Below are positions 14,420 to 63,806 of a stretch of 64,000 bases of DNA, in pieces. This DNA is from Nanobdellota archaeon. GTDB taxonomy: Archaea; Nanobdellota; Nanobdellia; SCGC-AAA011-G17; PNOQ01. How positions within the stretch are numbered: the stretch's first letter is position 1; the number at the start of each line of letters is the position of its first letter. The position numbers were made by a program, and so were the translations under genes. Where the stretch lies: positions 682 to 64,681 of the forward strand of contig JAHJUI010000005.1 in assembly GCA_018829185.1 (NCBI GenBank). Reading direction: 5' to 3'. The notes below the pieces were generated by a model that ran no database searches, was not told the origin of the DNA, and worked only from the letters and a program-made list of their open reading frames with translations.

Positions 14420-14451
14420 AATTTGTTTATATATTTTTCTTTGTTATAAAA

Positions 14452-17997: not shown

Positions 17998-18048
17998 AGA
18001 TTAACTTAATTGAGAATTATTTATATAGTTTTCTACCCTTCTACGTTT

Positions 18049-39901: not shown

Positions 39902-39925
39902 ATTTAATTTATTGTTTTTTGTATT

Positions 39926-41845
39926 TTATAAAGGTTTCTTCTTGAAAAAAGGGAATAGGAATCCTAGGTTAAATGCGTAAGCTGGTATTGATTTTAGGAT
40001 TGGTTTTTCTTTTCTATTTGCTGCTGCTTCACTTTCGTAGCAGGTTAATCCATCCCAATATTCGTTTTCATCATCTCCACAACAACCAAAATTATTTGGG
40101 GCAGAATATATAAATTCTCCTACTTCAAATCTTGGTTCGGATACATTATTTGTCCAGATGTAACCTGCCTCTTCACAAGTGTTTATTCCGGGTAATCCTG
40201 TATCTAGATCCCACCAACCGAATCCTATGCATCTTGCTTCGTGTTTTTCTCCTAATGGGCCGTCAATGTCAATCATTTGTGTTCCGTCTCCTTTGTAACA
40301 AGTTCCTTCGTATACACAATAGTTTGGCCAGTAACTTCCATTACAGTATGCGAAATCTGTTTCATTGTCTGCATAATCGCAACCCTCTGCTTGATTACAT
40401 GGGCCACCACCCATTTCATTATCATAATTTGTTCCATTTGTATCGTAGTAGTCTCCAAAGAAGAATTGTTGATAAGCTGAATCTGTTGTATCACAAGCAT
40501 CCCCTATTTCATCTCCATCTATATCTCCTTGTGCTGGGTTGTATGTGTAATCGCAATTGTCATATAAATCCCATATTCCATCTTCATCTGTGTCATCTGA
40601 TTCTATTGACCAGATTCCAAATGTAGCTAACTTACATTCCCCATAACCTACTTTAAAATATCCTCCGTCGGTACCATAATCATCCCCATAACTATTTTTT
40701 ACAATCCAAGTTTGATCTGCATCGTCCCATCCGATTATAATTATTGCGTGGTCCCAATCGCTCGGATTTGTACAGGTTAAAACATTGTCTTCCCCAAGGC
40801 TTCCACTAGACATATCTAGCTCAGAAGAAACTGGGCCCTTTTCCATTATTATTTGTTTTATTTCCCCCATTATCGGTTGATATATAAACTCCTTTGAGTC
40901 GAATGAAATCAATCTAGTTTCCCAATCCAAGCACAAATCCTCAGAACAGGAGGTATCACTACATACTCCAGTTGAATTATGTTCACAAATTGAATCGCAT
41001 GTGCCTCCACTACACCCGCACCCAGTTCCATCAACATAAAACATACATTCTTCATCTACTACACCAAAATCTTTAATGAAATCTATTGCATGGGGCAAGC
41101 TCCCCCCACAACAACCACTATTTTCTACTGTATGACAATCAGAAACCAATTGTTCTTCTGATAAATTTAAATCTAAGTTTGGATTCCCAGAACGAACATT
41201 ATACTCTGCTTCTGTCATTCCTATTGCTGAAAAAGCATAACAACTTCCACAGATTCCTTGATCTTTAACTGGGGTCATCCAATCTTCACCATTATAATCT
41301 CTCCAATCAAAATTAGCTGGCAAAGTTCTGGAACTTTTTACTGGTATATTGTCTTTTTTAATTTCTTCCAGTAAAGGCATTTCTCGTGAAGATTTAACTG
41401 ATTTATCGTTTAAATTAGTTAATTTTGTAACAGTTCCAATTTCTCTCCCAAATCGATTCACACAAACTGCATATTCTTGTGTAAACTCGTCTTTACCATC
41501 TGTTTTTATTTTTGTTTTATAGCCTTCTTTTGCACAATAATTATATTTTTGACCACATTTTCCTTGTAAGAATTCCCATCCCCCACATTGATTTCTTTTG
41601 TTGAAAACACAAATTCCATGTTGTCCTCCATCTTCTTCTGTAATGATTTTATAATCATAACCTAATTCAGTACAATAAACTGCTGCTGGATTTGCCATCC
41701 CTATCCCTTCTCCACCACAGGTTGAAACTTGTTTAGGTTGCAAGAAATTATTAGTTTTAAATAAATCTTCAAAACTAAATGCTGTAGTATTAAAACTCAT
41801 TAAAATCAATACTAAAATTACATAAAGTACTATTGCCTTTTTCAT
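39926..41845 (-). CDS. secreted papain-family (C1A) cysteine protease with Cys-rich and Ca-binding (TSP3-like) C-terminal region
   Basis: QGICGSCYAFSAIG (catalytic Cys box), HAIIIIGWD (His box), NSYGDDYGTDGGYF (Asn/Trp box). DxDxDGxxD repeats (DNCDYTYNPAQGDIDGDEIGDACD). Confidence 0.7.
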   Translation of the reverse strand: MKKAIVLYVILVLILMSFNTTAFSFEDLFKTNNFLQPKQVSTCGGEGIGMANPAAVYCTELGYDYKIITEEDGGQHGICVFNKRNQCGGWEFLQGKCGQKYNYCAKEGYKTKIKTDGKDEFTQEYAVCVNRFGREIGTVTKLTNLNDKSVKSSREMPLLEEIKKDNIPVKSSRTLPANFDWRDYNGEDWMTPVKDQGICGSCYAFSAIGMTEAEYNVRSGNPNLDLNLSEEQLVSDCHTVENSGCCGGSLPHAIDFIKDFGVVDEECMFYVDGTGCGCSGGTCDSICEHNSTGVCSDTSCSEDLCLDWETRLISFDSKEFIYQPIMGEIKQIIMEKGPVSSELDMSSGSLGEDNVLTCTNPSDWDHAIIIIGWDDADQTWIVKNSYGDDYGTDGGYFKVGYGECKLATFGIWSIESDDTDEDGIWDLYDNCDYTYNPAQGDIDGDEIGDACDTTDSAYQQFFFGDYYDTNGTNYDNEMGGGPCNQAEGCDYADNETDFAYCNGSYWPNYCVYEGTCYKGDGTQMIDIDGPLGEKHEARCIGFGWWDLDTGLPGINTCEEAGYIWTNNVSEPRFEVGEFIYSAPNNFGCCGDDENEYWDGLTCYESEAAANRKEKPILKSIPAYAFNLGFLFPFFKKKPL

Positions 41846-41881
41846 ATAAACTAAACTTATTGAGAAAATATAAAAACCTTT

Positions 41882-43438
41882 CTATTTCTTATTTTTCTTT
41901 CTTTTCTTTGGTTTTTTGTTAATTTTAACTTTTTTATTAGAATTATGTTGTGCTATGAAAAGTATTGTTGATATTCCTAAAATTACAACTACCCCGATTA
42001 TTACTACTTTAGATTCTGGAGATAATCTTGCTAATTTTCTAGCTTCTTGAATTGGAGTAAGACATTCTTTTTTGTTATCTTCATTACAAATTTGATTTTC
42101 TGGACATCCACAAATTTCACAGTCTCTTTCTAAATTTCCATTTTCTGTGCAGTAGAATGGTTTATCTTGTGAACAACTTTCAAATTCAGTGTGATAATCA
42201 TCTAAGCAAGTGTTAGTTTTTTCTGATTCTTTTTCTGATTGACGAACTGGGACGCAACATTTTAAATCTTCTCCCCAAAGATCAGAACAATCTGATTCTA
42301 AACCAGGATTATTTGAATTTATAAAGCCACTTGCGCATTCTGTTTCACAATAACCATCTGCACCATAACAAGAAAGTTCCATTATTTCTGTTTCTGTTTC
42401 ATTTTCTTCAAATTCAGATATGCAATACTCCTCAAAACAAGTATAATCTTCTGAACAAGGACATTCGCTGCATAAATTGGTTGCAATTCCAGATAAACAT
42501 TTGATTCCTCCTAAACAATTACCGTCTAAGACAAGGGGTAATCCCTGAGCAATATTAGTACAGTCTATTGTTTCTTCTAGTTTTAAAGGATCATTTGCAC
42601 AACCTGGATCTGCTAAATCTATTAATCCATCTCCATCGTTATCTGCTCCATCATTACATGCAGGCTCATCTGGATTTTCAATATAATTTGGACTGCAGCT
42701 TCCATCTTCTAAACAAAAACGACTATTTCCCCCAGTAGCATTTATACATCCCACATTAGTATCTCCCCCATCTTCACTAACTGGACTACAAGCTGTACAA
42801 CCTGTTTCCCCACATATTGGTGTTGTTCCACTGCAAGTACAATTATATGGTCCATCTGGATCACATCCAGGAACTAATTCCCACTCATCAGTACAAAACA
42901 TTCCAGGATAAATATCTGAACATTCATTTGAACTGGCACCCTCACCACACCCACTAATTGGGGGCGAGGCCTTTAAACATTCTCCAGTTAGTTTGTCACA
43001 ATACCCGTACTCTAATCCTCTTGCTTCAATACATTCTAAATTAGTTTCACATCCTCTGCATTCGTGAGGAACATTCACATTCTCACAATATGGTTCGTTA
43101 GAAGTTAAATCGCAAGGACAATCCCAACAACAATTAGATCTATCTTCTCCATTAGTACAAACATTGTCTCCACATTCGCTAGGTACACAACATTGTTTTT
43201 GATTGTATGGGGGAGAAATATCCCCTGGGCAATCAAGGATTCCTTTTGTATATTCTGAAGAACCACAGCTAAATTTACATGTTCCTCCAAAACCAGAACA
43301 AGTTGTAACTGCATTTCCAGTTACTAAATTAAAATCTAAATTGTTTATCCAGTCAATGAATGAAAATGCACTAACCGAAGTAGCTACAAAGGATACTAGG
43401 ATTATTAAAAATATTGATATCACAACTCTTTTTTTCAT
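41882..43438 (-). CDS. Cys-rich surface protein with C-terminal TM anchor and poly-basic tail
   Basis: Signal peptide. More than 50 Cys. DNDGDGLIDLADPGC Ca-binding-like repeat. TM plus KKVKINKKPKKRKKNKK. Confidence 0.5.
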   Translation of the reverse strand: MKKRVVISIFLIILVSFVATSVSAFSFIDWINNLDFNLVTGNAVTTCSGFGGTCKFSCGSSEYTKGILDCPGDISPPYNQKQCCVPSECGDNVCTNGEDRSNCCWDCPCDLTSNEPYCENVNVPHECRGCETNLECIEARGLEYGYCDKLTGECLKASPPISGCGEGASSNECSDIYPGMFCTDEWELVPGCDPDGPYNCTCSGTTPICGETGCTACSPVSEDGGDTNVGCINATGGNSRFCLEDGSCSPNYIENPDEPACNDGADNDGDGLIDLADPGCANDPLKLEETIDCTNIAQGLPLVLDGNCLGGIKCLSGIATNLCSECPCSEDYTCFEEYCISEFEENETETEIMELSCYGADGYCETECASGFINSNNPGLESDCSDLWGEDLKCCVPVRQSEKESEKTNTCLDDYHTEFESCSQDKPFYCTENGNLERDCEICGCPENQICNEDNKKECLTPIQEARKLARLSPESKVVIIGVVVILGISTILFIAQHNSNKKVKINKKPKKRKKNKK

Positions 43439-46002: not shown

Positions 46003-48093
46003 ATGCTGAATTTTAATAAATACTGGAGATTACCTTTAGTTATTGGTTTGGCTACTAGTTTAATTGGTTGTGGTAAACAGAATCCTATTCCTCCTGTTAT
46101 TCCTGTTATTCCTGATTTGCCCGTTGTTACTGAAGAAATAAATGCTGCACAGGGTGGTGTGATTGAAACAGGTACTTATGAAACAGGTATTTATAAGGTT
46201 GAGTTTCCCCCAAATTCTTTGTCACAAGATACAACTGTTGAGATTGGTGCTCCTGATGAAATTCCAAATTATCCTGTTTCGGAAAATTTAGAGCAAGCAA
46301 GTTCTTTTTTAGATATAAATCTTGGTTCTGCTTCTTTGGTTGATACTTGTTATATTTATATTCCTTATTCTGGTTTTGATAATGATAATCCACCTATGCC
46401 TTTTTTGTTTAATAGTAGTGGAAATCCTTTTGATATAGCAAGACCTTCTTCTGAAGATGAACATGTTAAAATAAATTATTTTAATGCAAGAAGGGATGGC
46501 GACTGGATTGCTGGTTTGTTTGATTTTATTGATTATGTTCAAGTGCCTAAGTTAACATTTCCAGATGGCTTTGATTTTAATTCTAGTGATCCTGTTATTT
46601 TACTAGTTCATGGGCAAGGTGGTAGTGCAGAAACATTTAATGAGCTAAATGATCCTCAGCCAACAATGTACGAATTTCTTAAGGAGGGTTATAATGGTAG
46701 AATTGGGACATGGGAATATCCTAGTATATTATCTGTTGATGTTACTGGTTTTGTGTTAGAAGATAAAATTGCTGAGTTAGAAGCCGAGCATGGAACATTT
46801 CCTTTTAAATTTGATGTTGTTACTCACAGCAGGGGTGGTTTAGATATAAGGTATTTTGTTAGAAATGGAAATGCTGATAAGGTAAATAAGGTTGTTTTTC
46901 TTGGAACACCGAATAATGGAACAACAATTGAGGCAGCTGGATATCATTTATTATTCCCCCCTGAAAGGAGTATTGATGATTGGTTTAATCCTTGGTCTTC
47001 AGGATTTTTGGATTGTTTAACTGGAAGTTCATTTTTAAATTCAATAAACACTTCTACTAGTGAAGAATTTAATGTTGATTATTACCCTATTGCTGGTAGC
47101 ATTTCAAATGATAATCCTTGTATTCCTGGAGAAGATGATCATTTAGTTGGTGTTGCTTCTGTTGATTTACATAATTTTCCTCATGAAAATGTTAGATTAC
47201 ATTCTTTAAATGAGATAGATTTGAGTCATGGAAGGTTGGTTGAGAATAGGAGGGATTTATTTATACATTTAGAAGATATTCTTAATCTAGATAATCCTTC
47301 TTTAAACGGGTTTGTAGTTTTTAGTGCTTTTGGAGTAATTATTTATTATCTCGATACTGGCGAAACAGAAAGATTAGGGGGGCAGGGGTATACCAAACCT
47401 GGTATTTCAAGAGATGGGGAAAAAATTTCTTTTAGTAAGATGTTGGGGGAGCCCACGATTCATATTATGAATGATATTATTCCTGGTGGAGAAATGATCC
47501 CGATAACACCCGGAGCCGGTCCTAGTTGGTCTCCTGACGGGAATGAACTTGCTTATATGTATGATGGAGATATTTGGATTGTTAATGTCAATACACTTAA
47601 TAAAAGAAATTTGACCAATTCTCCATCTTCTGTAGAATTATATCCAGATTGGTCTCCGTTAGGAGATAAAATTGCATTTAATTCTGATAGAGATGGTATA
47701 CTAAGTATTTATACTATTCCTGTTGATGGAGGAATTTGGACACGACTAACCTCTTCCCCCTGGCCTACTAAGTATCCAAGTTGGTCTCCTGACGGGAATG
47801 AACTTGTTTTTTACACTCATGTTGGTGGTGGTGGTAAAGTAGAAATATTCAAAATGAATAGTGATGGGACTAATAACAATAGGTTAGTATATTCTTCAAC
47901 AAATTACACAACAGATTACCCTTCTTGGTCTTATCCAAATGGAGATTGGATTTGTTTTAGACAACATCGGACTAATTATCCCGATATAGGAAAAATATAT
48001 TATGTAGATAGTGAAATTGGTGGTTTCCCCATTAGATTAACTCCTGACTTTTCGAGTGCAGATCAAGTTTTTTCTAGTTGGTATTGCGAATGA
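46003..48093 (+). CDS. lipoprotein-like alpha/beta-hydrolase (lipase/PGAP1-like) fused to TolB-like PD40 beta-propeller repeats
   Basis: Signal peptide with LIGCG lipobox-like Cys. VTHSRGG (GxSxG-type nucleophile elbow). Repeated WSPDGNELAY / WSPLGDKIAFNSDRDG PD40 motifs. Confidence 0.5.
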   Translation: MLNFNKYWRLPLVIGLATSLIGCGKQNPIPPVIPVIPDLPVVTEEINAAQGGVIETGTYETGIYKVEFPPNSLSQDTTVEIGAPDEIPNYPVSENLEQASSFLDINLGSASLVDTCYIYIPYSGFDNDNPPMPFLFNSSGNPFDIARPSSEDEHVKINYFNARRDGDWIAGLFDFIDYVQVPKLTFPDGFDFNSSDPVILLVHGQGGSAETFNELNDPQPTMYEFLKEGYNGRIGTWEYPSILSVDVTGFVLEDKIAELEAEHGTFPFKFDVVTHSRGGLDIRYFVRNGNADKVNKVVFLGTPNNGTTIEAAGYHLLFPPERSIDDWFNPWSSGFLDCLTGSSFLNSINTSTSEEFNVDYYPIAGSISNDNPCIPGEDDHLVGVASVDLHNFPHENVRLHSLNEIDLSHGRLVENRRDLFIHLEDILNLDNPSLNGFVVFSAFGVIIYYLDTGETERLGGQGYTKPGISRDGEKISFSKMLGEPTIHIMNDIIPGGEMIPITPGAGPSWSPDGNELAYMYDGDIWIVNVNTLNKRNLTNSPSSVELYPDWSPLGDKIAFNSDRDGILSIYTIPVDGGIWTRLTSSPWPTKYPSWSPDGNELVFYTHVGGGGKVEIFKMNSDGTNNNRLVYSSTNYTTDYPSWSYPNGDWICFRQHRTNYPDIGKIYYVDSEIGGFPIRLTPDFSSADQVFSSWYCE

Positions 48094-53028: not shown

Positions 53029-53483
53029 ATTACTATGATGAAATATCTTCTGGCTATAATGAACTTCACAAAGAAGAGCAATTAAAGAAGATTAAGATTA
53101 TTATTAAAGAATTAAACATAACTAATGAAATGGTTTTAGATGTTGGCTGTGGGACTGCTTTTTATTCTGATTTATTTAAAGATTATACTGGGATAGATAA
53201 TAGTGAAGGAATGTTAGAAAAAGCTAATTCTAATGTTATTTTGGGAAATGCAGAAGAATTACCGTTTGAAGATGATTCTTTTGATATTGTTATTTCTGTT
53301 ACTGCTTTACATAATGTTAAGGGTTTTAAAAAGGCTATAAAAGAAATGGAAAGGGTTTCTAAAGGAAAGATTGCTATTTCTGTTTTAAAGAAAAGTAAAC
53401 ATTTTGATGAAATTAAAAAAGAATTAAAAGATTATAAACAAATTGAGGAAGAAAAAGATATTATCTTTATTAATCAAACATAG
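53025..53483 (+). CDS. class I SAM-dependent methyltransferase
   Basis: VLDVGCGTAFYS (motif I), followed by an acidic motif II and an ISV... motif. 152 aa. Confidence 0.7.
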   Translation: MNYYDEISSGYNELHKEEQLKKIKIIIKELNITNEMVLDVGCGTAFYSDLFKDYTGIDNSEGMLEKANSNVILGNAEELPFEDDSFDIVISVTALHNVKGFKKAIKEMERVSKGKIAISVLKKSKHFDEIKKELKDYKQIEEEKDIIFINQT

Positions 53484-55263
53484 AAAATACGCCTTTATTG
53501 TCATTGTCTTTTTTTGGTTCTTCTTTTTTATCTTCTAAAATAATTGTTCTTTCTTTTCGGGGTAATGGTTTATCAAATTCTTCTACTTCTTTGTTTGATT
53601 CTGATGCTAAATGAAGTAAATATTTTATTTGTTCATTTCTTGACATTGGTGAAAATTTTTTCTCTGGCTCCGCTACTTTTGATTTAAATATTGTTGTTTT
53701 TGCTCCATCTTTGATTATTGGTTTTACATCAAATGATTTTTCTTCTGTTTTAATTCCTTGAGTTTCAATATCTTTTAAAATTCTTGCTTTGAAATCCCTT
53801 ATATCTTCATCTGTTGCTTTTCCAAATCTTATTTTAGACTTAAGTTTGGTCTTCATTTCTGTTTTTCTCTTTTCTCCAAGCCGTCTCTCTCTATCTTTAA
53901 CTCTCTCTGTTTTCTTTATTCCTTTAAATTTGTAGTAAAAGAAAACTCCAAATATACCAACTATAACAATCAAAAATATCCATGATGAATTGGTCCTTGA
54001 TGATCCTGAAGCTCTAACTGCGCTACCGGTTGTAGCTGTAAAAAAATCTCCAAAACGATTAATTGCGCTTCTTGCATCTGTAATTTCTATTCCATTTAAT
54101 GTTTCTTCAGTGTTTAATATTCTTAAATCATAAATCCCAGATCTTGCTTCTTTGAAAAGTTCCACATTCATTGATTCTCCGGGTCTTAATTTTGTAATTT
54201 TTTTAACTATTGAGCTATAATCTCCGCTGTTTAGTTCAATTTCTAAATCTTCTGTATAATCTAGATTTCCTATATTTTTTATTTCAAGAACTTGATTTGT
54301 TAAAGTGATAAGTAAATCTTCAACCCCCTCCACTGTAAATTTTGTTTCTTGTGTAAATCCCTCTGATTTTGAAATAATTGTCCAATCTCCTGGGAGAGCG
54401 TATTCATCTAATTCAAACTCTATTTCTTCTCCAGTTTCAGCAATCTTTTCAGAATATATTTTCCCCTTTGGATTTTTTATTGTTATGTCTATTTTTTCTT
54501 CAATTGGATCTCCTGCCTGATCATACAAAAATGGAATTATTATGACCGTTTCTCCTGGCAAAAATGAAGTTATACTTAATGAATTTTCTAAGCTTGTTGG
54601 TTTTGGTATGATCTCTAGAGAAATTGTTTCGGAACCACGGTTTCCAAAATTATCTTGAACTTGTAACAATAATGTGTGTTCTCCAGATTTTATTTGTTCT
54701 GGAACTAAAATTTCATATTCAAATTTGTTTTTTGTGATATCCAGCATATATGTTTTTCCATAAAGTTCATATCTTGCTTCTGCTTCTTCAATGTCTCCGC
54801 CAAATGGTTTTTCTAATGTGCTTTTTATTGCAATTGTTTGACCTGGTTTGTATCGTTCTCTGTTTAATGTTGATGTCAATGTCAGTTCAGAATCAACTCT
54901 TAATGAATCTATGTTGTCGAAAGTTACTGTGTTTCCATATCCATCATTATACGTTACTGAAATGGTATATTTTCCCGCAGGCATTGGTTCATTATCTGGA
55001 TTTAATGCTAGCATGGTTTCAACAGAAAATTTTCCATTTACTAAAGTAGAAGCAGCATTATATTCTGCATTTTCATTTTTGAAGTTTACAAGAACAAAAC
55101 CTATTTCTATTGGTTGTTCATTGTCTGATAATTCTCCTGAAAAAATGAATGAATCTCCAAGTTCTATCTTTTCTTTATTGATATTAAACGTTCCTTCGAT
55201 TGCTGCTTGAGCTCTAAATGGTATAAATAAAAACAAAAGTAATAATATCATCACCTTTTTCAT
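53470..55263 (-). CDS. surface protein: signal peptide, Ig-like/beta-sandwich ectodomain, TM helix, long charged cytoplasmic tail
   Basis: N-terminal signal peptide. Internal TM helix (SWIFLIVIVGIFGVFFYY). Lys/Glu-rich C-terminal ~170 aa. Confidence 0.5.
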   Translation of the reverse strand: MKKVMILLLLFLFIPFRAQAAIEGTFNINKEKIELGDSFIFSGELSDNEQPIEIGFVLVNFKNENAEYNAASTLVNGKFSVETMLALNPDNEPMPAGKYTISVTYNDGYGNTVTFDNIDSLRVDSELTLTSTLNRERYKPGQTIAIKSTLEKPFGGDIEEAEARYELYGKTYMLDITKNKFEYEILVPEQIKSGEHTLLLQVQDNFGNRGSETISLEIIPKPTSLENSLSITSFLPGETVIIIPFLYDQAGDPIEEKIDITIKNPKGKIYSEKIAETGEEIEFELDEYALPGDWTIISKSEGFTQETKFTVEGVEDLLITLTNQVLEIKNIGNLDYTEDLEIELNSGDYSSIVKKITKLRPGESMNVELFKEARSGIYDLRILNTEETLNGIEITDARSAINRFGDFFTATTGSAVRASGSSRTNSSWIFLIVIVGIFGVFFYYKFKGIKKTERVKDRERRLGEKRKTEMKTKLKSKIRFGKATDEDIRDFKARILKDIETQGIKTEEKSFDVKPIIKDGAKTTIFKSKVAEPEKKFSPMSRNEQIKYLLHLASESNKEVEEFDKPLPRKERTIILEDKKEEPKKDNDNKGVFSMFD

Positions 55264-55356
55264 ACACTTGATAGTTGCTTACTCATATATAAAATTATTG
55301 TTTGATAATAAATTTAATCCTCTTGGCTGATTTATATATTAAGTTTTTTGTCGTTG

Positions 55357-55746
55357 CTATTGGTCCTCTCTTTTTCTAAATAATTGGATTCTATCCAAGG
55401 TTATATATGTTTCTCCAGCTTCAATCTTTATTCCTAATAACCCATCGATATCATTTAATCCCTGTCTTGTTTCTTGATCTACAGATAATGGATAAGCTTC
55501 GACAATTTCAAAAGCTGATGCATCTAATAAATCTGCAGGAGATAATCCAAACTTGAATTGAATTGTATCAAAATCAGAATAAGCCACAATCTTCCTGATT
55601 GAATCTGAACAGATCCTTTTTCTTTTTTCAGGAGTTTTTGGGTCTGTGCCATCTAAATTAGTTGAACTACAAACCACATAAAATTCATTACCTACTTTTT
55701 GATATCTGCCATATTGATTTGGTACAATGGGACTTATATGTATCAT
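55357..55746 (-). CDS. hypothetical protein (GC-elevated), divergent from thrS
   Basis: 129 aa. No recognised family. Confidence 0.4.
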   Translation of the reverse strand: MIHISPIVPNQYGRYQKVGNEFYVVCSSTNLDGTDPKTPEKRKRICSDSIRKIVAYSDFDTIQFKFGLSPADLLDASAFEIVEAYPLSVDQETRQGLNDIDGLLGIKIEAGETYITLDRIQLFRKREDQ

Positions 55747-55836
55747 TTTTACTAAATTTCAGGATAAAACGCTCTTTTTAAAGGTTTTTATCAGATTTTG
55801 AGCGTTAAATTTAAATACTAAAAAGTAAAGTTAAAT

Positions 55837-57573
55837 ATGATGAAAGAAAAAGATAAAGAATTAGAATTAGAAAAGTTGAGACATACTTGTAGTCATGTTT
55901 TAGCTCATGCTGTTAGAAACTTGTTCCCAAAAGTTAAATTAGGTATGGGGCCGGCAATTGAAAATGGATTCTATTATGATTTCGATAAAAAAGAAGGATT
56001 TGACCAAGAAGAATTAAAAAATATTGAAAAAGAAATGAAGAGAATTATAAGGCGAAACCTTCCCTTGAAAAAAATTGAAGTTTCTAAAGAAAAAGCTAAA
56101 GAAATGTTAAAAGGGGAAAAATATAAATTAGAACTTTTAGAAGATTTGAAAGGAAAAATTACTTTTTATGAACAAGGAGATTTTAAAGATCTTTGCAAAG
56201 GCCCACATTTGGAAACAACTGGAGATATTATCGCTTTTAGTTTGTTAAAAACTTCTGGAGCTTATTGGAAGGGAGATTCTAAAAACAAAATGCTTCAAAG
56301 GATTTATGGGACTGCTTTTTTTAATAAAAATGAAATGGATGAATATGTACTTAGAATGGAAGAAGCAGAAAGAAGAGACCATAGAAAAATTGGGAAACAA
56401 TTAGATTGGTTTAGTTTTCATGAAGAAGCACCAGGAAATGTTTTTTGGCACCCTAAGGGGAGTATAATCTATAATGAAGTTTTAAAATATTGGAGAGAAA
56501 TACATGAAAGAGAAGATTATCAAGAAGTAAAAACCCCAATAATCTTGAATAAGAAATTATGGATGTCTAGTGGACATTGGGACAATTTTAAAGAAAATAT
56601 GTATTTCACTAAAATTGATGATACTGATTTTGCAGTTAAACCAATGAACTGCCCAGGCGGGATGTTAATCTATAAATCGCGGTTGCACAGCTACAGAGAA
56701 TTTCCAATGAGAATAGCAGAACTTGGAACTTGCCATAGGCATGAACTTTCAGGAACTTTACAAGGTTTGTTTAGAGTTAGAATGTTTACGCAGGATGATG
56801 CTCATATTTATTGTTTGCCTGATCAAGTTAAAGGTGAAATTAAGAAAATTATAAAACTGGTTTTAGAAATTTACAAAACTTTTGGTTTCCCTGAAGGGAA
56901 AATCGAATTAAGTACTATGCCAAAAAAACATATTGGTTCTTTAAAGGTTTGGAAAGAATCTGAAAAAATACTGACGGAAGTTTTGAAAGAAGAGAAAATT
57001 GATTATGAATTAAATCCAGGAGATGGTGCTTTTTATGGTCCTAAAATTGATTTCCATGTTAAAGATTGTTTAGGAAGAACCTGGCAATGTGGAACCATTC
57101 AATTAGACTTTTCAATGCCAGAAAATTTTGATTTGAAATATGAGGCTGCAGATGGTCAAAAACATAGACCAATAATGTTGCATAGAACTGTTTTAGGAAG
57201 TATTGAAAGATTTATTGGTGTATTAATTGAAAACTACGCTGGAAAATTACCTGTTTGGCTGAATCCTACTCAAGTTATTGTTTTGACTGTAACTGATAGA
57301 AGTAAACCTTTTGCAAAGAGGGTTGTTGGGGAGTTAAAGAAAAATGGAATAAGGGTTCATTTAGATGATAGGGCACAATCAGTTCCAAAGAAAGTTAGAG
57401 ATTCACAATTGCATAAAGCAAATTATACTTTAACAATTGGGGACAAGGAAGTTGAAACTGAAACTCTTGCTATAAGGACGTTAGATGGAAATGTTAAATT
57501 TAATGTTAAATTAAGCAAATTTATTGATGAAATTTTAAAAGAAATAAAAGAAAGAAAAAACTATAGCAAGTGA
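55837..57573 (+). CDS. thrS: threonine--tRNA ligase (editing domain + class II catalytic core + anticodon-binding domain; no N-terminal TGS domain)
   Basis: RHTCSHVLAHAV (editing-domain His motif), class II motifs (…FRVRMFTQDDAHIY…, …GTIQLDF…), C-terminal anticodon-binding domain. 578 aa. Confidence 0.88.
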   Translation: MMKEKDKELELEKLRHTCSHVLAHAVRNLFPKVKLGMGPAIENGFYYDFDKKEGFDQEELKNIEKEMKRIIRRNLPLKKIEVSKEKAKEMLKGEKYKLELLEDLKGKITFYEQGDFKDLCKGPHLETTGDIIAFSLLKTSGAYWKGDSKNKMLQRIYGTAFFNKNEMDEYVLRMEEAERRDHRKIGKQLDWFSFHEEAPGNVFWHPKGSIIYNEVLKYWREIHEREDYQEVKTPIILNKKLWMSSGHWDNFKENMYFTKIDDTDFAVKPMNCPGGMLIYKSRLHSYREFPMRIAELGTCHRHELSGTLQGLFRVRMFTQDDAHIYCLPDQVKGEIKKIIKLVLEIYKTFGFPEGKIELSTMPKKHIGSLKVWKESEKILTEVLKEEKIDYELNPGDGAFYGPKIDFHVKDCLGRTWQCGTIQLDFSMPENFDLKYEAADGQKHRPIMLHRTVLGSIERFIGVLIENYAGKLPVWLNPTQVIVLTVTDRSKPFAKRVVGELKKNGIRVHLDDRAQSVPKKVRDSQLHKANYTLTIGDKEVETETLAIRTLDGNVKFNVKLSKFIDEILKEIKERKNYSK

Positions 57574-57579
57574 TTTTCT

Positions 57580-58056
57580 ATGTTAGATAAATTAAAAGAA
57601 AAATTAAAGGAAATAAAAGAATTAGATAAGTTTAAAGATTGGAATGGAAAACATTTTGATGCTTATCTTTGTAGTATTTTTGTTGCTGATAAATTACAAT
57701 TTGATTTTTATGATCCTGAAACTGATAGGATAACTAGTTTTAATGGTGAAGAAGTTATTGAAGAGCAAGAAATTCTTAGAAAAGAGAAAAAGAAATTAAT
57801 TGAATTAAAATTAGATGATCTTAAAATTGATTTAGATAATGTTAAAGAAATTATTAAAAAATTAATAGATGAAAAATATAAGGGAGAAAGTTCAAATAAA
57901 GAAATTGTTTTTTTACAAAATTTTGAAGATAAAATTATTTGGAATGTAACTTATATTACAGATACTTTTAATATTTTAAATGTTAAAGTTGATGCTAAAA
58001 CTGGAGAAACTCTTTTTGAAAAGATTGAATCTGCTTTAAATTGGAAAGTTAACTAA
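57580..58056 (+). CDS. hypothetical coiled-coil protein
   Basis: 158 aa, Lys/Glu-rich. Confidence 0.4.
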   Translation: MLDKLKEKLKEIKELDKFKDWNGKHFDAYLCSIFVADKLQFDFYDPETDRITSFNGEEVIEEQEILRKEKKKLIELKLDDLKIDLDNVKEIIKKLIDEKYKGESSNKEIVFLQNFEDKIIWNVTYITDTFNILNVKVDAKTGETLFEKIESALNWKVN

Positions 58057-60139
58057 GGTCAATGTAAATTTCTCTGTCTGTTCCTTCTCCTGCTAAGGTT
58101 AAAAGTGGTACTGGAATAGCTGCTTCGTTTATTATTTCTTGAGAAATTGCATTTATTGCTGCGTTTATTGAACTGCTCATTGTTACGTTTATATAATCTT
58201 CTCCTACTTCAAAAATTCTGAATTCTGTTGGGTAATTCATAGTTGCTGTTGTTGTGAAATAATGTATTCCATTATATTCTTCATAGGTGTTTGCGTGGTT
58301 ATGTCCGCTGATTACAACTATTGTTTTGTAATCATTTTTGTAGTTTTCTAGAATTGTTTCAATTTCATCTTCAGTGCATCTAAACCCATTAGAAGAAGTA
58401 TTCATATACTCATCATTGCAATGCATTCCTATGTGATGAAATAAGAATAATTTTTTGTTTTGACCTTGATAAGTTGATAATGTTTCACTTAAAAAAGTTT
58501 CATTGTATCTGCTTTCAGATGTACCTTCGCTTATTTCTGAAAGGCCTACAAACAAGTTATTTCCCTTGACAAAATTCCAATTCATCATATCTGAACCAAA
58601 TATGCTTTCATAAATTAGTTGACATATTGGATCGTCAATATTGTCGTGCCAATGTGCACCGATTAAATAATAATCTGAACCAACTGTTCCTAATCCATCT
58701 GCTATTGATTTAAATGCGTTAAAAGAAGTATTTTGGTTGCAATCTGGATTTGCTACATTATCTCCCGTGAAGATTGCAAAATCATAATCAATATTTTGTG
58801 CTTCTTGGATTGCATCTTGTAAAGCAATTGTTGGTGCTAAGGAAGTTCTGGATGTTGAATTTATCCATTGGCAGATTCCAGTTGAACATTCACTTACATA
58901 ATCAGTTAAATAATTTTCGCAATCTGTTCTTCCGTCTCCCGGAACAGAATTTCCGCAAAGACCTGCAATAATTATGTGTGTATCCGTGATTTGTAAAAAT
59001 GTTAAAGGTTGTTCTTCTATTTGTTGCTCCATATAAGTATAATAATCTTGTATTTCATTTTCTTGTAACTTTCTGTTCCACACTGCAACTTCATCTATTG
59101 CTCCATAGAAATAATTATAAGCAATTAATTTATTATATCCTATTGCAAAGGGATGTATTATTGGTTGAGATATGTAACCTACATAGGATTCTGAATCTTT
59201 TACTCCATTAACATAAAAAGTGATATTTGGTGCATCATAGATCATAATTAAATTGTGCCATTCGTCTTGGCTCCAAGAATTTTTATTTGTTGTTGTAGAT
59301 GAGCCTGTAACCCCCATTCTAAGTGATCCTTGACTAATCCCAAAATATGTTGACCACCCGCCCGGTGTTCCACCTGTATTTTGTGAGACTAAACCCCTAT
59401 TTTTTGATAGTGAAGAATTAATTGTTTCTGTTGGTTTAAACCAAAGTGAAACTGTAAAAGTTTCTGTTAAATTTAAACTCAAGTCATTTCCAAAACTTAC
59501 GTAATTATTCACCCCATTAAAATTTAAAGCATTGTCAAAAGCCCCAACTATTTGAGTTGCTCCATTTATTGTTCCATCGTTATTATTAATTCCCCCTTCA
59601 TCTTCTGCATTTGTGTCTAAACTCCAGTAAGAAATTAATCCTGATTGGGGTAATGGATTGTATGTTCCTTTTTGTTTTATTTCTCTAACAAATATTGCTG
59701 CTGGGGCTGTGGGGATTAAAATTTTTTCATTTACTAAAACTTTTGGGAATAATTCTATTCTTTCTATTTTTCCTATACAAGTTATATCAACATTAAACCA
59801 TTTTGAAGAAAATTCTTCTAATCCATCAATAATATTTCCTGATTTAGTTTCTTGATTTGTTATAATTCTAATAACAAAGCTATTTATTGAGACTTCTGCT
59901 TTGTTTTCTATTAAAATTTCTAAACTATCACATCCTATTGAAGGATCAGATGCTTTTGCATCTAATATTTTTACATCGACTCCTATAAGTACCATTACTT
60001 CTTCTATTTCTTCTCCAGTTTGTTCTGTTTGAGAATTAAAAAATTGTCCGCCCCATCTAAAAACTAAGGCTGCTAATACTATTGTGAAACCAATTAATAG
60101 AACTGTTGCTATTAAAGGAGAAATGCCTCTTTTTTTCAT
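58049..60139 (-). CDS. archaeal class III (type IV pilin-like) signal peptide fused to LamG-like and calcineurin-like phosphoesterase domains
   Basis: N-terminus MKKRGISPLIATVLLIGFTIVLAALVF is the canonical archaeal prepilin/archaellin signal (KRG/ISPLIATVLLI). LamG_3 block (AIDEVAVWNRKLQENEIQDYY). Phosphoesterase motifs (LQITDTHI, FTGDNVAN, FHHIGMH, SGHNHANT). Box A lies 20 nt upstream. Confidence 0.6.
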   Translation of the reverse strand: MKKRGISPLIATVLLIGFTIVLAALVFRWGGQFFNSQTEQTGEEIEEVMVLIGVDVKILDAKASDPSIGCDSLEILIENKAEVSINSFVIRIITNQETKSGNIIDGLEEFSSKWFNVDITCIGKIERIELFPKVLVNEKILIPTAPAAIFVREIKQKGTYNPLPQSGLISYWSLDTNAEDEGGINNNDGTINGATQIVGAFDNALNFNGVNNYVSFGNDLSLNLTETFTVSLWFKPTETINSSLSKNRGLVSQNTGGTPGGWSTYFGISQGSLRMGVTGSSTTTNKNSWSQDEWHNLIMIYDAPNITFYVNGVKDSESYVGYISQPIIHPFAIGYNKLIAYNYFYGAIDEVAVWNRKLQENEIQDYYTYMEQQIEEQPLTFLQITDTHIIIAGLCGNSVPGDGRTDCENYLTDYVSECSTGICQWINSTSRTSLAPTIALQDAIQEAQNIDYDFAIFTGDNVANPDCNQNTSFNAFKSIADGLGTVGSDYYLIGAHWHDNIDDPICQLIYESIFGSDMMNWNFVKGNNLFVGLSEISEGTSESRYNETFLSETLSTYQGQNKKLFLFHHIGMHCNDEYMNTSSNGFRCTEDEIETILENYKNDYKTIVVISGHNHANTYEEYNGIHYFTTTATMNYPTEFRIFEVGEDYINVTMSSSINAAINAISQEIINEAAIPVPLLTLAGEGTDREIYIDLS

Positions 60140-60200
60140 AATAATAATTTAAGAAAATATGTTTATAAACTTTTCTAAGTGTTGTTCCTCTTAAGAAGGT

Positions 60201-60422
60201 TTATTTTAAAATTTTTGTTTTTGAGGTTTTTCCAGAAATTATTTTTACTTTTTGTTTAAGAAGCTTTGAAAAATATTTTTCTATTTCTATATTTGCCTTA
60301 TTTTTTTCCGGTAATGCTTTTACTTCTACTTTGTATGCTTTTCTTTCTTTGTTGTAACCAATAATTTGTGTTTTTTTAGAATTTGTTTTTACAATTATTT
60401 TTATTGGTAGCTTTATTTCCAT
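60201..60422 (-). CDS. DUF167 (YggU/UPF0235) family protein
   Basis: VKALPEKNKANIEIEKYFSKLLKQKVKIISGKTSKTKIL matches the DUF167 core. Likely start is MEIKLPIKII, whose ATG overlaps the dph5 stop by 8 nt. Confidence 0.5.
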   Translation of the reverse strand: MEIKLPIKIIVKTNSKKTQIIGYNKERKAYKVEVKALPEKNKANIEIEKYFSKLLKQKVKIISGKTSKTKILK

Positions 60423-61135
60423 TGTTGTAAGGCTTCTTCTTCCATGAAATGTAATTTTCCTGGAATAATTAGGCATTGGGGGAATTTATCCCATTTTATT
60501 TTATTTAATTTTGACAATTTATCTACTTTTATAGTTTGATTTTTATTCCCTATTCTGGAACAAGCTATTGCTAATTGATCTTTAACATTGTTTTTTAATA
60601 AAAATTCAATTGCATTATTTATTGATAAGAATTTTTTTGTAATTGGATCTAAATCTAATAAAAATAAAGTATGTAACTCTTGTTTTTGGTTTTGATCTAA
60701 AACTTGTATTGGGGTTTTTGTTTCATGGAAGGGTATTGATGTTATTTTTCCATATTTGTAAACTTCTAAGCCTACAACCCCTATTGCGGAGGTAATTGAA
60801 GCATTATGTATAAATTCTATTTTTATTTTCTTTTCCCTGGCTCTTTGTAATAAATCTACATGTGTTGTTGCAGAGAAAATATCTCCTATTACTAAAAAAG
60901 CTACATTTGATTTTTTTGCTTTTTCAAGCATTTCATCTGCTTTTTTTTCTACTAAATCTCTATCTGCTACTGTTATTTTTTTCTTGTAAAGTTTTTCTAG
61001 TTTTTTAATTGAAGTTGGGAGTATTGATGTGTAATATTCTAAGTAAATATATTTGCATTTTTTTATTGCTTCTAGCCCTTTTAGGGTTATATCTTTTTCA
61101 TCATTTAATCCAAGTCCAATAAAATATAATGTCAT
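60413..61135 (-). CDS. dph5: diphthine synthase
   Basis: MTLYFIGLGLNDEKDITLKGLEAIKKCKYIYLEYYTS matches the tetrapyrrole-methylase-fold Dph5 N-terminus. 240 aa. Confidence 0.85.
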   Translation of the reverse strand: MTLYFIGLGLNDEKDITLKGLEAIKKCKYIYLEYYTSILPTSIKKLEKLYKKKITVADRDLVEKKADEMLEKAKKSNVAFLVIGDIFSATTHVDLLQRAREKKIKIEFIHNASITSAIGVVGLEVYKYGKITSIPFHETKTPIQVLDQNQKQELHTLFLLDLDPITKKFLSINNAIEFLLKNNVKDQLAIACSRIGNKNQTIKVDKLSKLNKIKWDKFPQCLIIPGKLHFMEEEALQQWK

Positions 61136-61608
61136 TTTTTGTTCACCTTGAAAATTAATGTGAATAATGCTCCTGATGTGAAAGCTAAAATGAAATTATT
61201 GGGTATTTTAACAAATAAAAGTAAAAAAGGAATTGCAAAGAAGACTAAGTCGAATAAAAGTGTTTTATATTTGTATTTTTTTGAGAATAATAAAGAACCA
61301 TAAGGCAATCCAAATAGGAAAATTAAAATTACTGTAAATAAATTTAATGTTGAAAACAAAGCTAATCCAAAGTAGAAATATTCTTTTTTAAAGAAATATG
61401 CTACGATTAATCCAATTATGAAGAATATTATTGTTGATATGTAATTAGGTAATGCTAGATAGAATAGAAAAGTTACTAGGAAAATTAAAATTGTCCTTTT
61501 TAACCAAATAAAATATTTTTTTCCTTGTTTTAATTCTTCTTTTGTAAATCTAGCTAATAGTAAACCGACTACAATTCCCAAGAAGGTTATTATTATTTCT
61601 ATTAACAT
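61132..61608 (-). CDS. integral membrane protein
   Basis: 4-5 TM helices. Overlaps the dph5 start by 4 nt. Confidence 0.45.
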   Translation of the reverse strand: MLIEIIITFLGIVVGLLLARFTKEELKQGKKYFIWLKRTILIFLVTFLFYLALPNYISTIIFFIIGLIVAYFFKKEYFYFGLALFSTLNLFTVILIFLFGLPYGSLLFSKKYKYKTLLFDLVFFAIPFLLLFVKIPNNFILAFTSGALFTLIFKVNKK

Positions 61609-61643
61609 AAGCCAAATAGAAATTTGGGAGTATAAAAGATTTT

Positions 61644-63806
61644 TTATTTATGTTTTTTATGCTTTCTTTTTTTATGTTTCTTTTTTCTTTTCTTTTTCTG
61701 TTCTTTTTCTTCTTCTTTTCTTCTTCTGTTGAAAAACAAAAATCCTGCGATAGCAATAACTAGTAGCATTAGTGAAAGTGTTAACTTCCATAATGGTGGT
61801 TCTGTAACTTCTGTTGTTGGTAATTCTGTTGTCGGTGCTTCAATTTCTGTTCTACATATACCGCTATCGCAGGCGGTGTTATTTGGGCACTCAAAAATAT
61901 CAGACCATTCATAACATGGATCTTGGTCATAATTTCTACATACTACATATGTATTATCATCTATGCAAACTTTTTGGTCTTTTGCACATTCATCTCTACA
62001 GGGCAAAGAAGGTTCGCATGCTAATTCTGCTTCGGAATTATCTGTTGGGCTCATGCATCCTGGGTCATCTGGGAAGTCTGTGCATCCATCATTATCATTG
62101 TCTCTGCCATCATTACAATCTGGATAATTATATGAGTGGGTTATGTAGTCGTCGTCATCGTCATCTGGTGGAGTTGATTGACAATTTGATGCTGAACTAC
62201 AATCTTGATCAGCACAATCTACTTCATTATCCCCGTCATTGTCTATTCCGTCATTACAATTTTCTTGGATTTGATCATAAATACATGCTAGTGGGCCACA
62301 AATATTAATTGTAAATGGATTTCCATCATCGCAATTAGAATCATTGAAATAGTGTGTTATATGACCTAACCCACTCCCTTCTTCAACGCAATCATCATCT
62401 GTACAATCTACTCCATCATCAAGTTGTGGCCCGGTGCCCACTTGGCATCCTGTAATTGGATCGCCTGTAATTGGGTCACAAGTTTCTTCCCCATTGCAAT
62501 ATAAATTATCATTACAATAACTATGAGCTGGATTATTTTCGCATTCTGAATTAACGTTACATATATCTTCTGTACAATCAAAACTATCATCACAATCATT
62601 CTGGTTTTCACATTCAACAACTGTTACACTTCCTGTTGAAGCATCTCCTTGTGTTTCTATTTCCAACATTACATAATCATTATAAATATAATCATAATAC
62701 CATTCTCCTGGCGGGCTTAATCTTGGTGGATCTATTTCTTGGTCATCTATCTCTCTTAATTTAGGGGTTGCACAATCTGATGCTGAATCACATTGATCTT
62801 GGCCTTCTCCTGGAACTTCTGTGCAAACATTTTGTACGCATTCTGCATGTGTTATTCCGGCGGTAATTCCTTCATAATCCCAAGCTAAAAAAGTTACAAT
62901 GTTGTTTGAAATATAGTCTTCTAAATTTTCGTAATAAAAGATATTTCCTGAGAAAGAAACTTCTGTTTGGGAGTTTGTTGAATATAATTCTACAAAATTA
63001 CTCTCACTATAATCATAAATATATAGTTTTCCTTCATGTGGCAAACTAGATAGGGGATCCTTGAAATAACCCTCCCAAGTAAAATTAATCCTTTCTAAAT
63101 TATTTGGTACTTCAAAGAAATATTTTAAGGCTCCATGTAAACAATCTTTTTTAGATGCAAATAAAGCAAAATCAGAGTTTTCACCATTGGGGTCTTGTAA
63201 ATTAGAATAAGTTAAATTTTCCATGCAATCATAAGGATTGTCATATTGTATTTCACAAGAAAATCTATTTGGGGCAATTTCATCTGGGCCCTTGTTTTCG
63301 CAATCTGAAATCATTTCTACATCTAAATGCCATTGATCTGCCCAAGTTTCGTTTGTATCTTGATCAGAATGAAGTTCAAAAACTTCTCCCGGATAAGTAG
63401 AATCACATCCTGCAGAGTTACAGACTTGTGCATACCAAGTTAGATCTGCTTCTGCTGTTAATGTAATTGATCCTCCTGAGACAATATCTCCCTCAGCTAA
63501 ACAATCAGTTTGATCATCGTAATCACAACTTGAGAAACTTGGTGAATCATCTATTAATAATTTACACGAAGCTCCACCATCATCAAATTCTGCTGTGAAA
63601 ATTATGTTTTCTCCTACAATGTAGTTTAGCCCAATTGGGGGTTGTACAGTTATACTTGTTAAAGAAGGAAGTGGTGCTCCAGGTGGTGCTAATCTTGGTT
63701 CTTTAATAATAACTGGAAAAAATTTTAAAGAAAAAAATATACTAAAAGTTAGAAAAATCAAGATAAATACAGATATATAAATAGTCCAAACTTGCTTTCT
63801 GTCCAA
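61644..63806 (-). CDS. Cys-rich surface protein with TSP3-like Ca-binding repeats, C-terminal TM anchor and poly-basic tail
   Basis: N-terminal TM/signal. More than 60 Cys. CNDGIDNDGDNEVDC and CNDGRDNDNDGCTD repeats. TM plus RRRKEEEKEQKKKRKKKHKKRKHKKHK. Confidence 0.5.
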   Translation of the reverse strand: MDRKQVWTIYISVFILIFLTFSIFFSLKFFPVIIKEPRLAPPGAPLPSLTSITVQPPIGLNYIVGENIIFTAEFDDGGASCKLLIDDSPSFSSCDYDDQTDCLAEGDIVSGGSITLTAEADLTWYAQVCNSAGCDSTYPGEVFELHSDQDTNETWADQWHLDVEMISDCENKGPDEIAPNRFSCEIQYDNPYDCMENLTYSNLQDPNGENSDFALFASKKDCLHGALKYFFEVPNNLERINFTWEGYFKDPLSSLPHEGKLYIYDYSESNFVELYSTNSQTEVSFSGNIFYYENLEDYISNNIVTFLAWDYEGITAGITHAECVQNVCTEVPGEGQDQCDSASDCATPKLREIDDQEIDPPRLSPPGEWYYDYIYNDYVMLEIETQGDASTGSVTVVECENQNDCDDSFDCTEDICNVNSECENNPAHSYCNDNLYCNGEETCDPITGDPITGCQVGTGPQLDDGVDCTDDDCVEEGSGLGHITHYFNDSNCDDGNPFTINICGPLACIYDQIQENCNDGIDNDGDNEVDCADQDCSSASNCQSTPPDDDDDDYITHSYNYPDCNDGRDNDNDGCTDFPDDPGCMSPTDNSEAELACEPSLPCRDECAKDQKVCIDDNTYVVCRNYDQDPCYEWSDIFECPNNTACDSGICRTEIEAPTTELPTTEVTEPPLWKLTLSLMLLVIAIAGFLFFNRRRKEEEKEQKKKRKKKHKKRKHKKHK

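Follow-up and report, generated by a model that had tools for sequence, protein, structure and literature searches.

A 64-kb stretch of archaeal DNA (contig JAHJUI010000005.1; hereafter the window) was found to encode a protein of 696 residues (hereafter the target) that is very probably a pilin-family protein carrying two further modules, a laminin G-type (LamG) domain and a phosphoesterase domain. We consider it probable, with some reservation, that a type IV pilus displays the target as an archaeal modular pilin and that its enzyme domain is active. The open reading frame (ORF) occupies 58049..60139 on the minus strand, exactly where an initial annotation of the window, made from sequence alone, had placed it. 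Its ATG at 60139 is the first start downstream of an in-frame stop located 9 nt upstream (the stop-to-stop segment ends at 60148), and since this stop leaves no earlier start, MKKRGISPLIATVLLIGFTIVLAALVF represents the true N-terminus.

The N-terminus of the target reads MKKRG followed by ISPLIATVLLIGFTIVLAALVF, that is, a five-residue leader, an R-G↓I-S-P junction (the arrow marks the predicted cleavage site) and a run of 22 uncharged hydrophobic residues, and the mean Kyte-Doolittle hydropathy of the N-terminal segment is 2.56. The NCBIfam model for the N-terminal domain of archaellins and type IV pilins (TIGR02537) scores 39.3 bits over residues 3-34 (cutoff 20; E 3.2e-10), and archaeal pilin models were the only ones returned for this region by Pfam and NCBIfam scans. 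A hidden Markov model (HMM) built from 116 stand-alone pilin homologs and run against the window in all six frames matched the target ORF alone (E 7e-41); no second pilin was detected in the window by this search. A loose FlaFind-like regular expression also flagged two ordinary Sec-signal proteins and was dropped as stand-alone evidence; because this rule is unspecific by itself, the assignment of a class III signal is carried by the homology evidence, which upholds the archaeal type IV pilin-like signal proposed initially. The accompanying statement that such a canonical signal normally fronts pilins or archaellins was too strong, as predictions of class III signals on archaeal proteins other than pilins, enzymes among them, go back to 2007 (reviewed in PMC2910488).

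The similarity to pilins extends beyond the signal. Used alone as a query, residues 1-161 retrieved 273 proteins from a word-indexed database, nearly all of them stand-alone proteins of 130-190 aa aligned with a query coverage of 80-94%, and an exhaustive phmmer search with the same residues against 1.84 billion representatives returned 1112 matches at E <= 1e-3. Stand-alone pilins from DPANN archaea are 33-45% identical to the target module over ~140 aa and terminate, in the alignment, within a few residues of target position ~150-160, where its linker starts. Across 84 aligned pilins, little or no variation is found at G5 or in I6-S7-P8-L9-I10. AlphaFold2 (AF2) models of the module alone (predicted local distance difference test, pLDDT, 82) and of the full protein concur in a 45-residue α1 helix (aa 8-52) and a β-sandwich (aa 56-150), the former model presenting a helix at 8-53 and an eight-stranded sandwich. 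The best PDB matches obtained for the module with Foldseek were Halobacterium salinarum archaellins in their filament (9eq7, E 5e-4), and the Pyrobaculum calidifontis archaeal type IV pilin 8fk7_A was also matched (E 8e-4, TMt 0.52).

Residues 1-155 thus constitute a complete pilin module, encompassing α1 and β-sandwich, and not merely a signal peptide. The initial annotation undercalled this region: the pilin signal that it described stands, whereas the single ~650-aa ectodomain that it placed behind the signal is replaced by a pilin globular domain, reaching to residue ~155, and some 540 aa of LamG and phosphoesterase. The N-terminal motif, α1 and the β-sandwich are shared with stand-alone Nanoarchaeota and Woesearchaeota pilins (P0040 and P0059) and with 8fk7 and 9eq7. 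In contrast to the stand-alone pilins, the target has ~540 additional C-terminal residues, and their conserved cysteine pair (C50/C144 in the alignment) is replaced by C70/C121 in the subgroup to which the target belongs. The presence of a complete pilin module speaks for a pilus subunit on display and against secretion via a pilus system. Of the two fates initially envisaged for the enzymatic cargo, to be displayed on or secreted via a pilus-like system, display is the best-supported reading, the module being homologous to operon pilins and having a pilin/archaellin fold, and secretion is not favoured.

Pilus operons harbor stand-alone members of this family. P0040 and P0059 are encoded in operons comprising three homologous pilins, small class III-like proteins, a T2SSE ATPase and two T2SSF proteins. 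In the operon containing P0040 (L004), the gene order is a 222-aa class III-like protein, pilins of 187, 170 and 165 aa, a 169-aa protein, the T2SSE ATPase, an 85-aa protein, the two T2SSF proteins and three small proteins, and the same layout is found in a further operon (L005). In the latter (L005 11098-15558, metagenome-assembled genome [MAG] GCA_053531435.1), the T2SSE ATPase is 1486 aa long and contains two inteins and a LAGLIDADG homing endonuclease domain.

The L004 operon lies on the same contig as the target's ortholog (P0001), 15-21 kb upstream of it (JBDRAW010000006.1 of MAG GCA_043823355.1). This MAG shares with the window a threonyl-tRNA synthetase (ThrRS) at 100% identity, a 597-aa surface protein at 99.7% and 4.6 kb of flanking DNA at 99.5% nucleotide identity, and judged by these identities the two are effectively the same species. 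By synteny, the window's own pilus operon would be located beyond coordinate 64000. The operon pilin P0040 begins KKGISPLIATVLLIGFTIVLAALVMRWGGQFF and the target KRGISPLIATVLLIGFTIVLAALVFRWGGQFF, their mature N-termini presenting a single difference in the first 27 residues, and such a near-identical α1 would be expected for subunits that pack via α1 in one filament.

The two modules that follow the pilin were identified by different means. The Pfam model LamG_3 (PF13385) matches aa 209-364 with an E-value of 4.7e-23 and 82.4 bits against a threshold of 27.6, spanning positions 2-151 of the 151 in the profile, and the NCBIfam TafC model produces a weak match at aa 200-369 (32.9 bits against a cutoff of 410). 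For the C-terminal domain, Foldseek searches with the AF2 model identified GpdQ (3d03, E 2.9e-9) and Rv0805 (TMt 0.71), with zebrafish dimetal phosphatase 2nxf, purple acid phosphatases and Mre11 as further matches. A profile of the domain's family run against PDB sequences matched GpdQ only (E 1.9e-4), and a single-sequence phmmer search of the PDB with the C-terminal domain alone gave chance-level matches. Most catalytic residues are present, and apart from a variant motif III the metal ligands are kept across the family (D386-x-H388, G459-D460, H498-D499, H569 and G612-H613-N-H615); a DGRTD motif at 401-405 is both invariant in, and specific to, the target's phosphoesterase family. Fold match and family profile corroborate the calcineurin-like phosphoesterase of the initial annotation despite a marginal Pfam score.

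The target hence resembles GpdQ from Enterobacter aerogenes (3d03/2dxl) and the class III cyclic-nucleotide phosphodiesterase Rv0805 in fold (Foldseek E 3e-9, TMt 0.64-0.72) and in the DxH, GD, H and GHxH motifs. Unlike them, it is only 14-16% identical in sequence, reads GAHWHD instead of G-N-H-D/E at motif III, contains the DGRTD insert and several conserved cysteines, and has its phosphoesterase domain outside the cell, fused to pilin and LamG. An extracellular location is supported by the N-terminal export signals predicted on all complete members of the phosphoesterase family, and by the 10 Cys, eight N-glycosylation sequons (N-X-S/T) and absence of transmembrane segments beyond the N-terminal one in the target. 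From the conserved metal ligands and the strong purifying selection described below, we infer that the domain would be active.

Table 1. Layout of the target gene and of the variable tract in which it lies. Positions are window coordinates; dN/dS is the ratio of nonsynonymous to synonymous substitution rates between the target and its ortholog P0001.
Feature	Residues	Position	Strand	dN/dS	Basis
Whole ORF, 696 aa + stop, predicted tri-modular pilin precursor	1-696	58049..60139	-		ORF call; ortholog P0001
TATA-box-like element TTTATAAA		60162..60169	-		Read from sequence; centred ~26 nt upstream of ATG
Leader peptide MKKRG	1-5	60125..60139	-		Predicted prepilin-peptidase cleavage after Gly5 (R -2, G -1, I +1)
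Pilin α1 helix, N-terminal half of 22 uncharged hydrophobic residues	6-52	59984..60124	-	0.19	AF2 helix 8-52/53, pLDDT up to 95
Pilin globular β-sandwich, Cys70/Cys121	53-155	59675..59983	-	0.44	AF2 pLDDT 80-94; Foldseek archaellin and type IV pilin matches
Short linker	156-164	59648..59674	-		Low-confidence, unstructured in AF2; between end of pilin alignment and start of LamG consensus
LamG / concanavalin-A-like lectin-type domain	~165-368	59036..59647	-	0.20	Pfam Laminin_G_3; extent from relatives' consensus
Metallophosphoesterase domain	375-696	58052..59017	-	0.105	Pfam, AF2 pLDDT ~90, Foldseek, family profile
Strain-variable tract: target, DUF167 gene, diphthine synthase, 158-aa membrane protein, 720-aa Cys-rich surface protein		58050..63723	.		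blastn against conspecific MAG

The fusion of a pilin module to a large cargo is not restricted to the target. Among the 150 best representative matches to the pilin module, 46 are cargo-bearing proteins (at least 250 aa), and these account for 17 of the top 20 (Fisher p = 9e-8). They range from 250 to 1877 aa and begin with the module (residues 1-~140), and Pfam identifies LamG_3 in 18 of the 46, together with other ConA-like domains, MopE-type Cys repeats, CBM_4_9, fibrinogen-C, RCC1 and ThuA. By eye, P0142 and P0148 also contain stretches resembling right-handed β-helix, with no confirmation by any tool. In the sister fusions P0003 (L003 10001-11830) and P0004, the ~440-aa cargo had no Pfam or PDB sequence match beyond the pilin N-terminus, and may be an unrecognised hydrolase-like domain.

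The association of pilin and phosphoesterase is also observed outside this group. In P0257 (521 aa; L006 10001-11566), a different archaeal pilin-like N-terminus, KKG↓VSAVVATVLIIMITV, is joined to a member of the target's DGRTD phosphoesterase family that is 37% identical to it, with no LamG in between. The independent occurrence of P0257 indicates that the pilin-phosphoesterase combination arose, or was kept, at least twice. The gene adjoins fibrillarin/Nop5 genes on a 248-kb archaeal contig. In a different MAG (L020 10001-12818), P0009, a 676-aa protein with pilin, Fn3 and LamG domains, is encoded immediately beside a diphthine synthase (TP_methylase) gene, a placement comparable to that seen in the window at 58049-61135; this suggests that the slot beside diphthine synthase is conserved while its cargo changes.

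Comparison with the conspecific MAG revealed that the target gene lies in a strain-variable tract. Nucleotide identity by blastn is 99.5% at 53446-58056, falls to 83-85% or to no match at all within the tract and returns to 95% from 63723 onwards, and the break coincides exactly with the target stop codon, where identity drops to 83%. In the MAG, the tract (L003 1050-11823) is ~5 kb longer and holds two additional paralogous surface genes, of 571 and 609 aa. The conspecific MAG and two metagenome contigs present three tandem genes between the DUF167 gene and the 158-aa and ThrRS genes, where the window has the 696-aa gene only. The first of these encodes 571 aa with a Sec-like signal, a Cys-rich region and a phosphoesterase domain, the second is the 696-aa ortholog and the third encodes 609 aa, comprising a pilin module and an unrecognised cargo.

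The target pilin module, together with the 40 nt upstream of the ATG, matches the 609-aa gene of the MAG at 75% nucleotide identity, and the phosphoesterase part matches the 571-aa gene at 72%. Since parts of the target match these two genes, the locus can be read as a small workshop of duplicated and recombined modules, and allelic replacement by recombination is the obvious candidate for the process behind its sharp mosaic. At the far end of the tract, the 720-aa Cys-rich protein (61644-63806, minus strand) is predicted to be secreted, with an N-terminal transmembrane segment or signal, a C-terminal transmembrane segment and a Lys-rich tail, and has no Pfam match; at the corresponding place the MAG carries a 916-aa gene, with a weak disintegrin-like match, and a 310-aa gene.

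The ortholog P0001, present in three independent assemblies, retains 82% protein identity to the target over the full length. Between both genes, dN/dS is 0.17 overall at a dS of ~0.6, and values of 0.10-0.44 in every module (Table 1) indicate that the gene is functional. The enzyme domain is the most constrained part of the protein and the surface-exposed pilin β-domain the least.

The data outlined above can be arranged into a tentative sequence of events. The precursor would be inserted into the membrane by its class III signal, a PibD/FlaK-type prepilin peptidase would cut off MKKRG after Gly5 and the mature 691-aa subunit would co-assemble into a type IV pilus via its pilin module (aa 6-155), the pilus being built by a pilin-ATPase-TadC operon like the one found upstream of the ortholog in the conspecific MAG. 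Because a cargo of ~60 kDa is attached to the C-terminal end of the pilin module, the target would be expected at the tip or sparsely placed, and by analogy with bacterial modular pilins it would be a low-abundance subunit at or near the pilus tip. The LamG domain would there bind a glycan or surface ligand, and the GpdQ/Rv0805-like binuclear domain would hydrolyse phosphodiester or phosphomonoester bonds on the host cell, on polymers or in dissolved substrates.

Several observations weigh against an active enzyme displayed on pili. On the pilin side, the Pfam model Pilin_N (PF07790) remains below its gathering score at aa 4-39 (18.4 against 25.2), and the fold matches of the module are modest, if specific (template-modelling score 0.44-0.52, E 5-8e-4). 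AF2 is not confident over the LamG region (pLDDT <50), owing to a poor alignment. The Pfam model Metallophos (PF00149) falls just short of its threshold at aa 380-616 (20.7 against 21.5 bits), and motif III reads G494-A-H496-W-H498-D499 (GAHWHD) in place of GNHD/E, with the canonical metal-binding Asn replaced. Regarding the machinery, no T2SSE ATPase, T2SSF/TadC or A24-type prepilin peptidase is encoded in the window, and Pfam recognised no prepilin peptidase when the genes lacking annotation in the MAG's pilus operon were scanned. Lastly, both the target gene and the other examined fusions are encoded outside pilus operons; the neighbours of these fusions are often further large secreted proteins, but a pilus operon is present elsewhere in the genomes concerned.

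The location of the fusion genes outside pilus operons bears on a possible but rather unlikely alternative, in which the pilin module, once cut by the prepilin peptidase, does no more than tether and oligomerise the enzyme on the cell surface, either within the membrane or as part of a very short pseudopilus, and takes no part in long pili. Such anchoring has been proposed for the sugar-binding proteins of the Sulfolobus bindosome, the studied archaeal case of class III signals on substrate-binding proteins. The bindosome needs pilus-type assembly genes although no filament has been observed, and in archaea proteases and redox proteins are also predicted to carry class III signals (PMC2910488, PMC3387779). 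Like the bindosome proteins, the target would be an extracellular functional protein with a PibD-type class III signal, and a bulky cargo would hinder packing into the body of a filament. Against such anchoring, the target keeps an entire β-sandwich, homologous to that of the operon pilins, which would have no obvious use in the absence of filament contacts, and the α1 of the target is nearly identical to that of the operon pilin. In the Sulfolobus bindosome binding proteins, only the signal and a hydrophobic segment are known to precede the functional domain. To our knowledge, archaeal non-pilin proteins with class III signals, whether substrate-binding, protease or redox proteins, lack a pilin globular domain. 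The target, unlike the bindosome proteins, has a full pilin domain, carries no solute-binding domain detectable with Pfam or NCBIfam and has LamG and phosphoesterase as its cargo.

Motif III underlies another alternative that we deem about equally unlikely, namely that the target is indeed a pilus-displayed modular pilin, with a catalytically dead phosphoesterase-like domain that binds a ligand together with LamG and makes the protein an adhesin only. As the canonical Asn is missing from this motif, the domain could serve for binding and not for catalysis, and family members differ at the position (H, N, K, M, Y, G, D, E, V and T at aa 496). The sub-threshold Metallophos score and the mostly binding-type cargo of related pilins (LamG, CBM and fibrinogen-like) point in the same direction. 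Yet six canonical metal ligands do not vary within the family, nor do the His and Asp of motif III, and the residue that HMMER aligns with the metal-binding Asn80 of GpdQ, H496, is a His and so a competent metal ligand, while the paralogs P0002 and P0253 have Asn at this position. The phosphoesterase domain has, moreover, the lowest dN/dS in the protein, which speaks against an adhesin-only role.

A still less likely scenario dispenses with both pili and prepilin peptidase, the hydrophobic N-terminus serving as an uncleaved signal that anchors a LamG-phosphoesterase ectoenzyme as a type II membrane protein. The single N-terminal hydrophobic segment of the target, with no other transmembrane segment, would suffice for such an anchor. 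The failure to find a peptidase in the window or in the examined operon has a counterpart in two nanoarchaeal genomes with secretion ATPases and no recognisable peptidase (Makarova et al. 2016, PMC4858521). A mere anchor, however, would not be expected to retain a K/R-G↓I-S-P-L-I site that is invariant or nearly so in 84 family members. The homology to pilins spans the whole 155-aa module, TIGR02537 scores above its cutoff and full pilus operons are present in related genomes, all of which run counter to this scenario.

Peptidase candidates within the window were also considered. Two small proteins with five transmembrane segments, at 3638-4138 and 61132-61608, have no Pfam match, and the latter contains a single Asp, which disqualifies it as an aspartyl peptidase. 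A presenilin-type signal-peptide peptidase (PF06550) at 32096-32881 on the plus strand was rejected as a prepilin peptidase, belonging to a distinct GxGD aspartyl family; a different MAG encodes a further copy of this presenilin-type enzyme at L020 12943-13725, with the gene for the pilin fusion P0009 two genes away.

We attach hardly any credence to an artefact, that is, a chimeric misassembly or a decaying pseudogene in which a pilin gene is joined to the gene of a secreted enzyme. The MAG neighbours that share the pilin module (609 aa) and the phosphoesterase domain (571 aa) are repeats that could confuse an assembler, but the 696-aa architecture is intact in four independent sequences (the window and ENA, JGI and NCBI assemblies), dN/dS is 0.10-0.44 in every module at the dS of ~0.6 given above, and the fusion in P0257 occurs independently in another lineage.

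Some properties of the gene and its genome complete this picture. The spacing of the TATA-box-like element relative to the ATG, viewed against general knowledge of archaeal promoters, suggests that the target gene may have its own promoter and a leaderless mRNA. No full-length match at 100% identity was found for the target in the protein database, where only a 98-aa fragment (P0022) matches at that level. A scan of genome contigs retrieved nothing but bacterial LamG proteins, and one of metagenomes nothing but the JGI contig already mentioned. The window has a G+C content of ~30% and contains archaeal housekeeping genes, part of them recognised with Pfam and the rest from their translations alone, and the nearest database relatives come from MAGs named Nanoarchaeota or Woesearchaeota. 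The source organism is a DPANN-type archaeon ('Nanoarchaeota' going by the names of related MAGs).

Other secreted proteins are encoded elsewhere in the window. The initial annotation had drawn attention to a 1181-aa protein at 14452-17997 with the same LamG and calcineurin-like architecture as the target. The shared architecture was verified, but not a close relationship: only the LamG domains align (26% identity, E 1e-7), the phosphoesterases show no relationship detectable by BLASTP, that of the 1181-aa protein being purple-acid-phosphatase-like, and the target was rejected as a paralog of this LamG+Metallophos protein. It forms part of a cluster at 12764-20199 (minus strand) of three surface proteins with Sec signals, the others being a 551-aa purple-acid-phosphatase-like protein and a 716-aa NosD/β-helix protein; the 1181-aa protein carries LamG, PAP_N, Metallophos and Ig-like domains, of which only LamG is related to the target. 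Three consecutive Sec-signal proteins are also encoded at 38867-43438 (minus strand), with no Pfam match for the outer two and a middle one of 639 aa, a C1 protease of the papain family in which DUF333 and a thrombospondin-type repeat also occur. Another ORF of exactly 696 aa, at 46003-48093 on the plus strand, owes its length to coincidence; its product resembles a lipoprotein and combines an α/β-hydrolase domain (DUF7379) with β-propeller repeats of the PD40/DPP-IV type. The Sec-secreted hydrolases of the window, two purple-acid-phosphatase-like enzymes, a papain-like protease and an α/β-hydrolase, fit a scavenging lifestyle.

The closest known counterparts of the target are the modular type IV pilins of bacteria, such as Streptococcus sanguinis PilC, in which the pilin is followed by Ig-like and ConA-like lectin domains, and PilB, in which it is followed by a vWA domain (Raynaud et al. 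2021, PMC8179133; Shahin et al. 2023, PMC9934059). In these bacterial proteins PF13385 is among the commonest cargos, a few carry predicted enzymes (S74 and M26 peptidases) and the cargo subunits have been modelled at the pilus tip (PMC8179133, PMC9934059). The target is taken to work like a modular pilin, sharing with them an N-terminal pilin module, a short linker and bulky modules that include a ConA/LamG-type domain, and belongs to the archaeal type IV pilin family and, as a divergent member, to the metallophosphoesterase superfamily. Unlike bacterial modular pilins, it has an N-terminus of the archaeal TIGR02537/PF07790 type (K/R-G↓ISP), with no Glu5 and no IPR012902 motif, its globular part is an archaellin-like β-sandwich and its gene lies outside the pilus operon. 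The bacterial survey was defined by IPR012902 and makes no mention of archaea, phosphatase or hydrolase (PMC8179133), whereas the cargo of the target includes a metallophosphoesterase. By sequence, then, the target is an archaeal analogue of modular pilins that falls outside the surveyed bacterial set. With TafC, a minor subunit of haloarchaeal Tat-fimbriae, it has only the LamG-type domain in common, since TafC, unlike the target, is Tat-secreted and located in a filament other than a type IV pilus (PMC11821415). In the literature library searched, we found no described modular pilin in archaea or with this enzyme, none of the papers listed for pilins and class III signals mentioned a metallophosphoesterase, and none combined DPANN, laminin G and pilin.

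Modular pilins are thought to be partly behind the versatility of type IV pili and their characterisation has so far been confined to bacteria and, nearly always, to adhesins. The target does not define a new kind of system; it extends the modular-pilin strategy to an archaeal lineage with a reduced, host-dependent lifestyle. A wider reading, which we regard as speculative and on balance doubtful, is that pili in this DPANN lineage act as enzymatic tools as well as means of attachment, with interchangeable, strain-variable cargo pilins placing hydrolases at the tip. If this were true, the cargos would encompass a LamG-guided phosphodiesterase, the possible hydrolase of P0003 and P0004 and the β-helix modules of P0142 and P0148, such hydrolases would attack or harvest envelope polymers with phosphoester bonds, lipid head-groups or nucleic acids from host cells, and the hypervariable locus would reflect host-range adaptation or an arms race. 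Phosphate, nucleotides and lipid head-groups are generally not made by DPANN archaea themselves. If the enzyme is active and located on pili, it would provide a testable mechanism by which a DPANN archaeon combines recognition of a surface or host, through LamG, with the extraction of such compounds. Its sharp strain-level divergence also makes the locus a candidate for setting the specificity for host or substrate.

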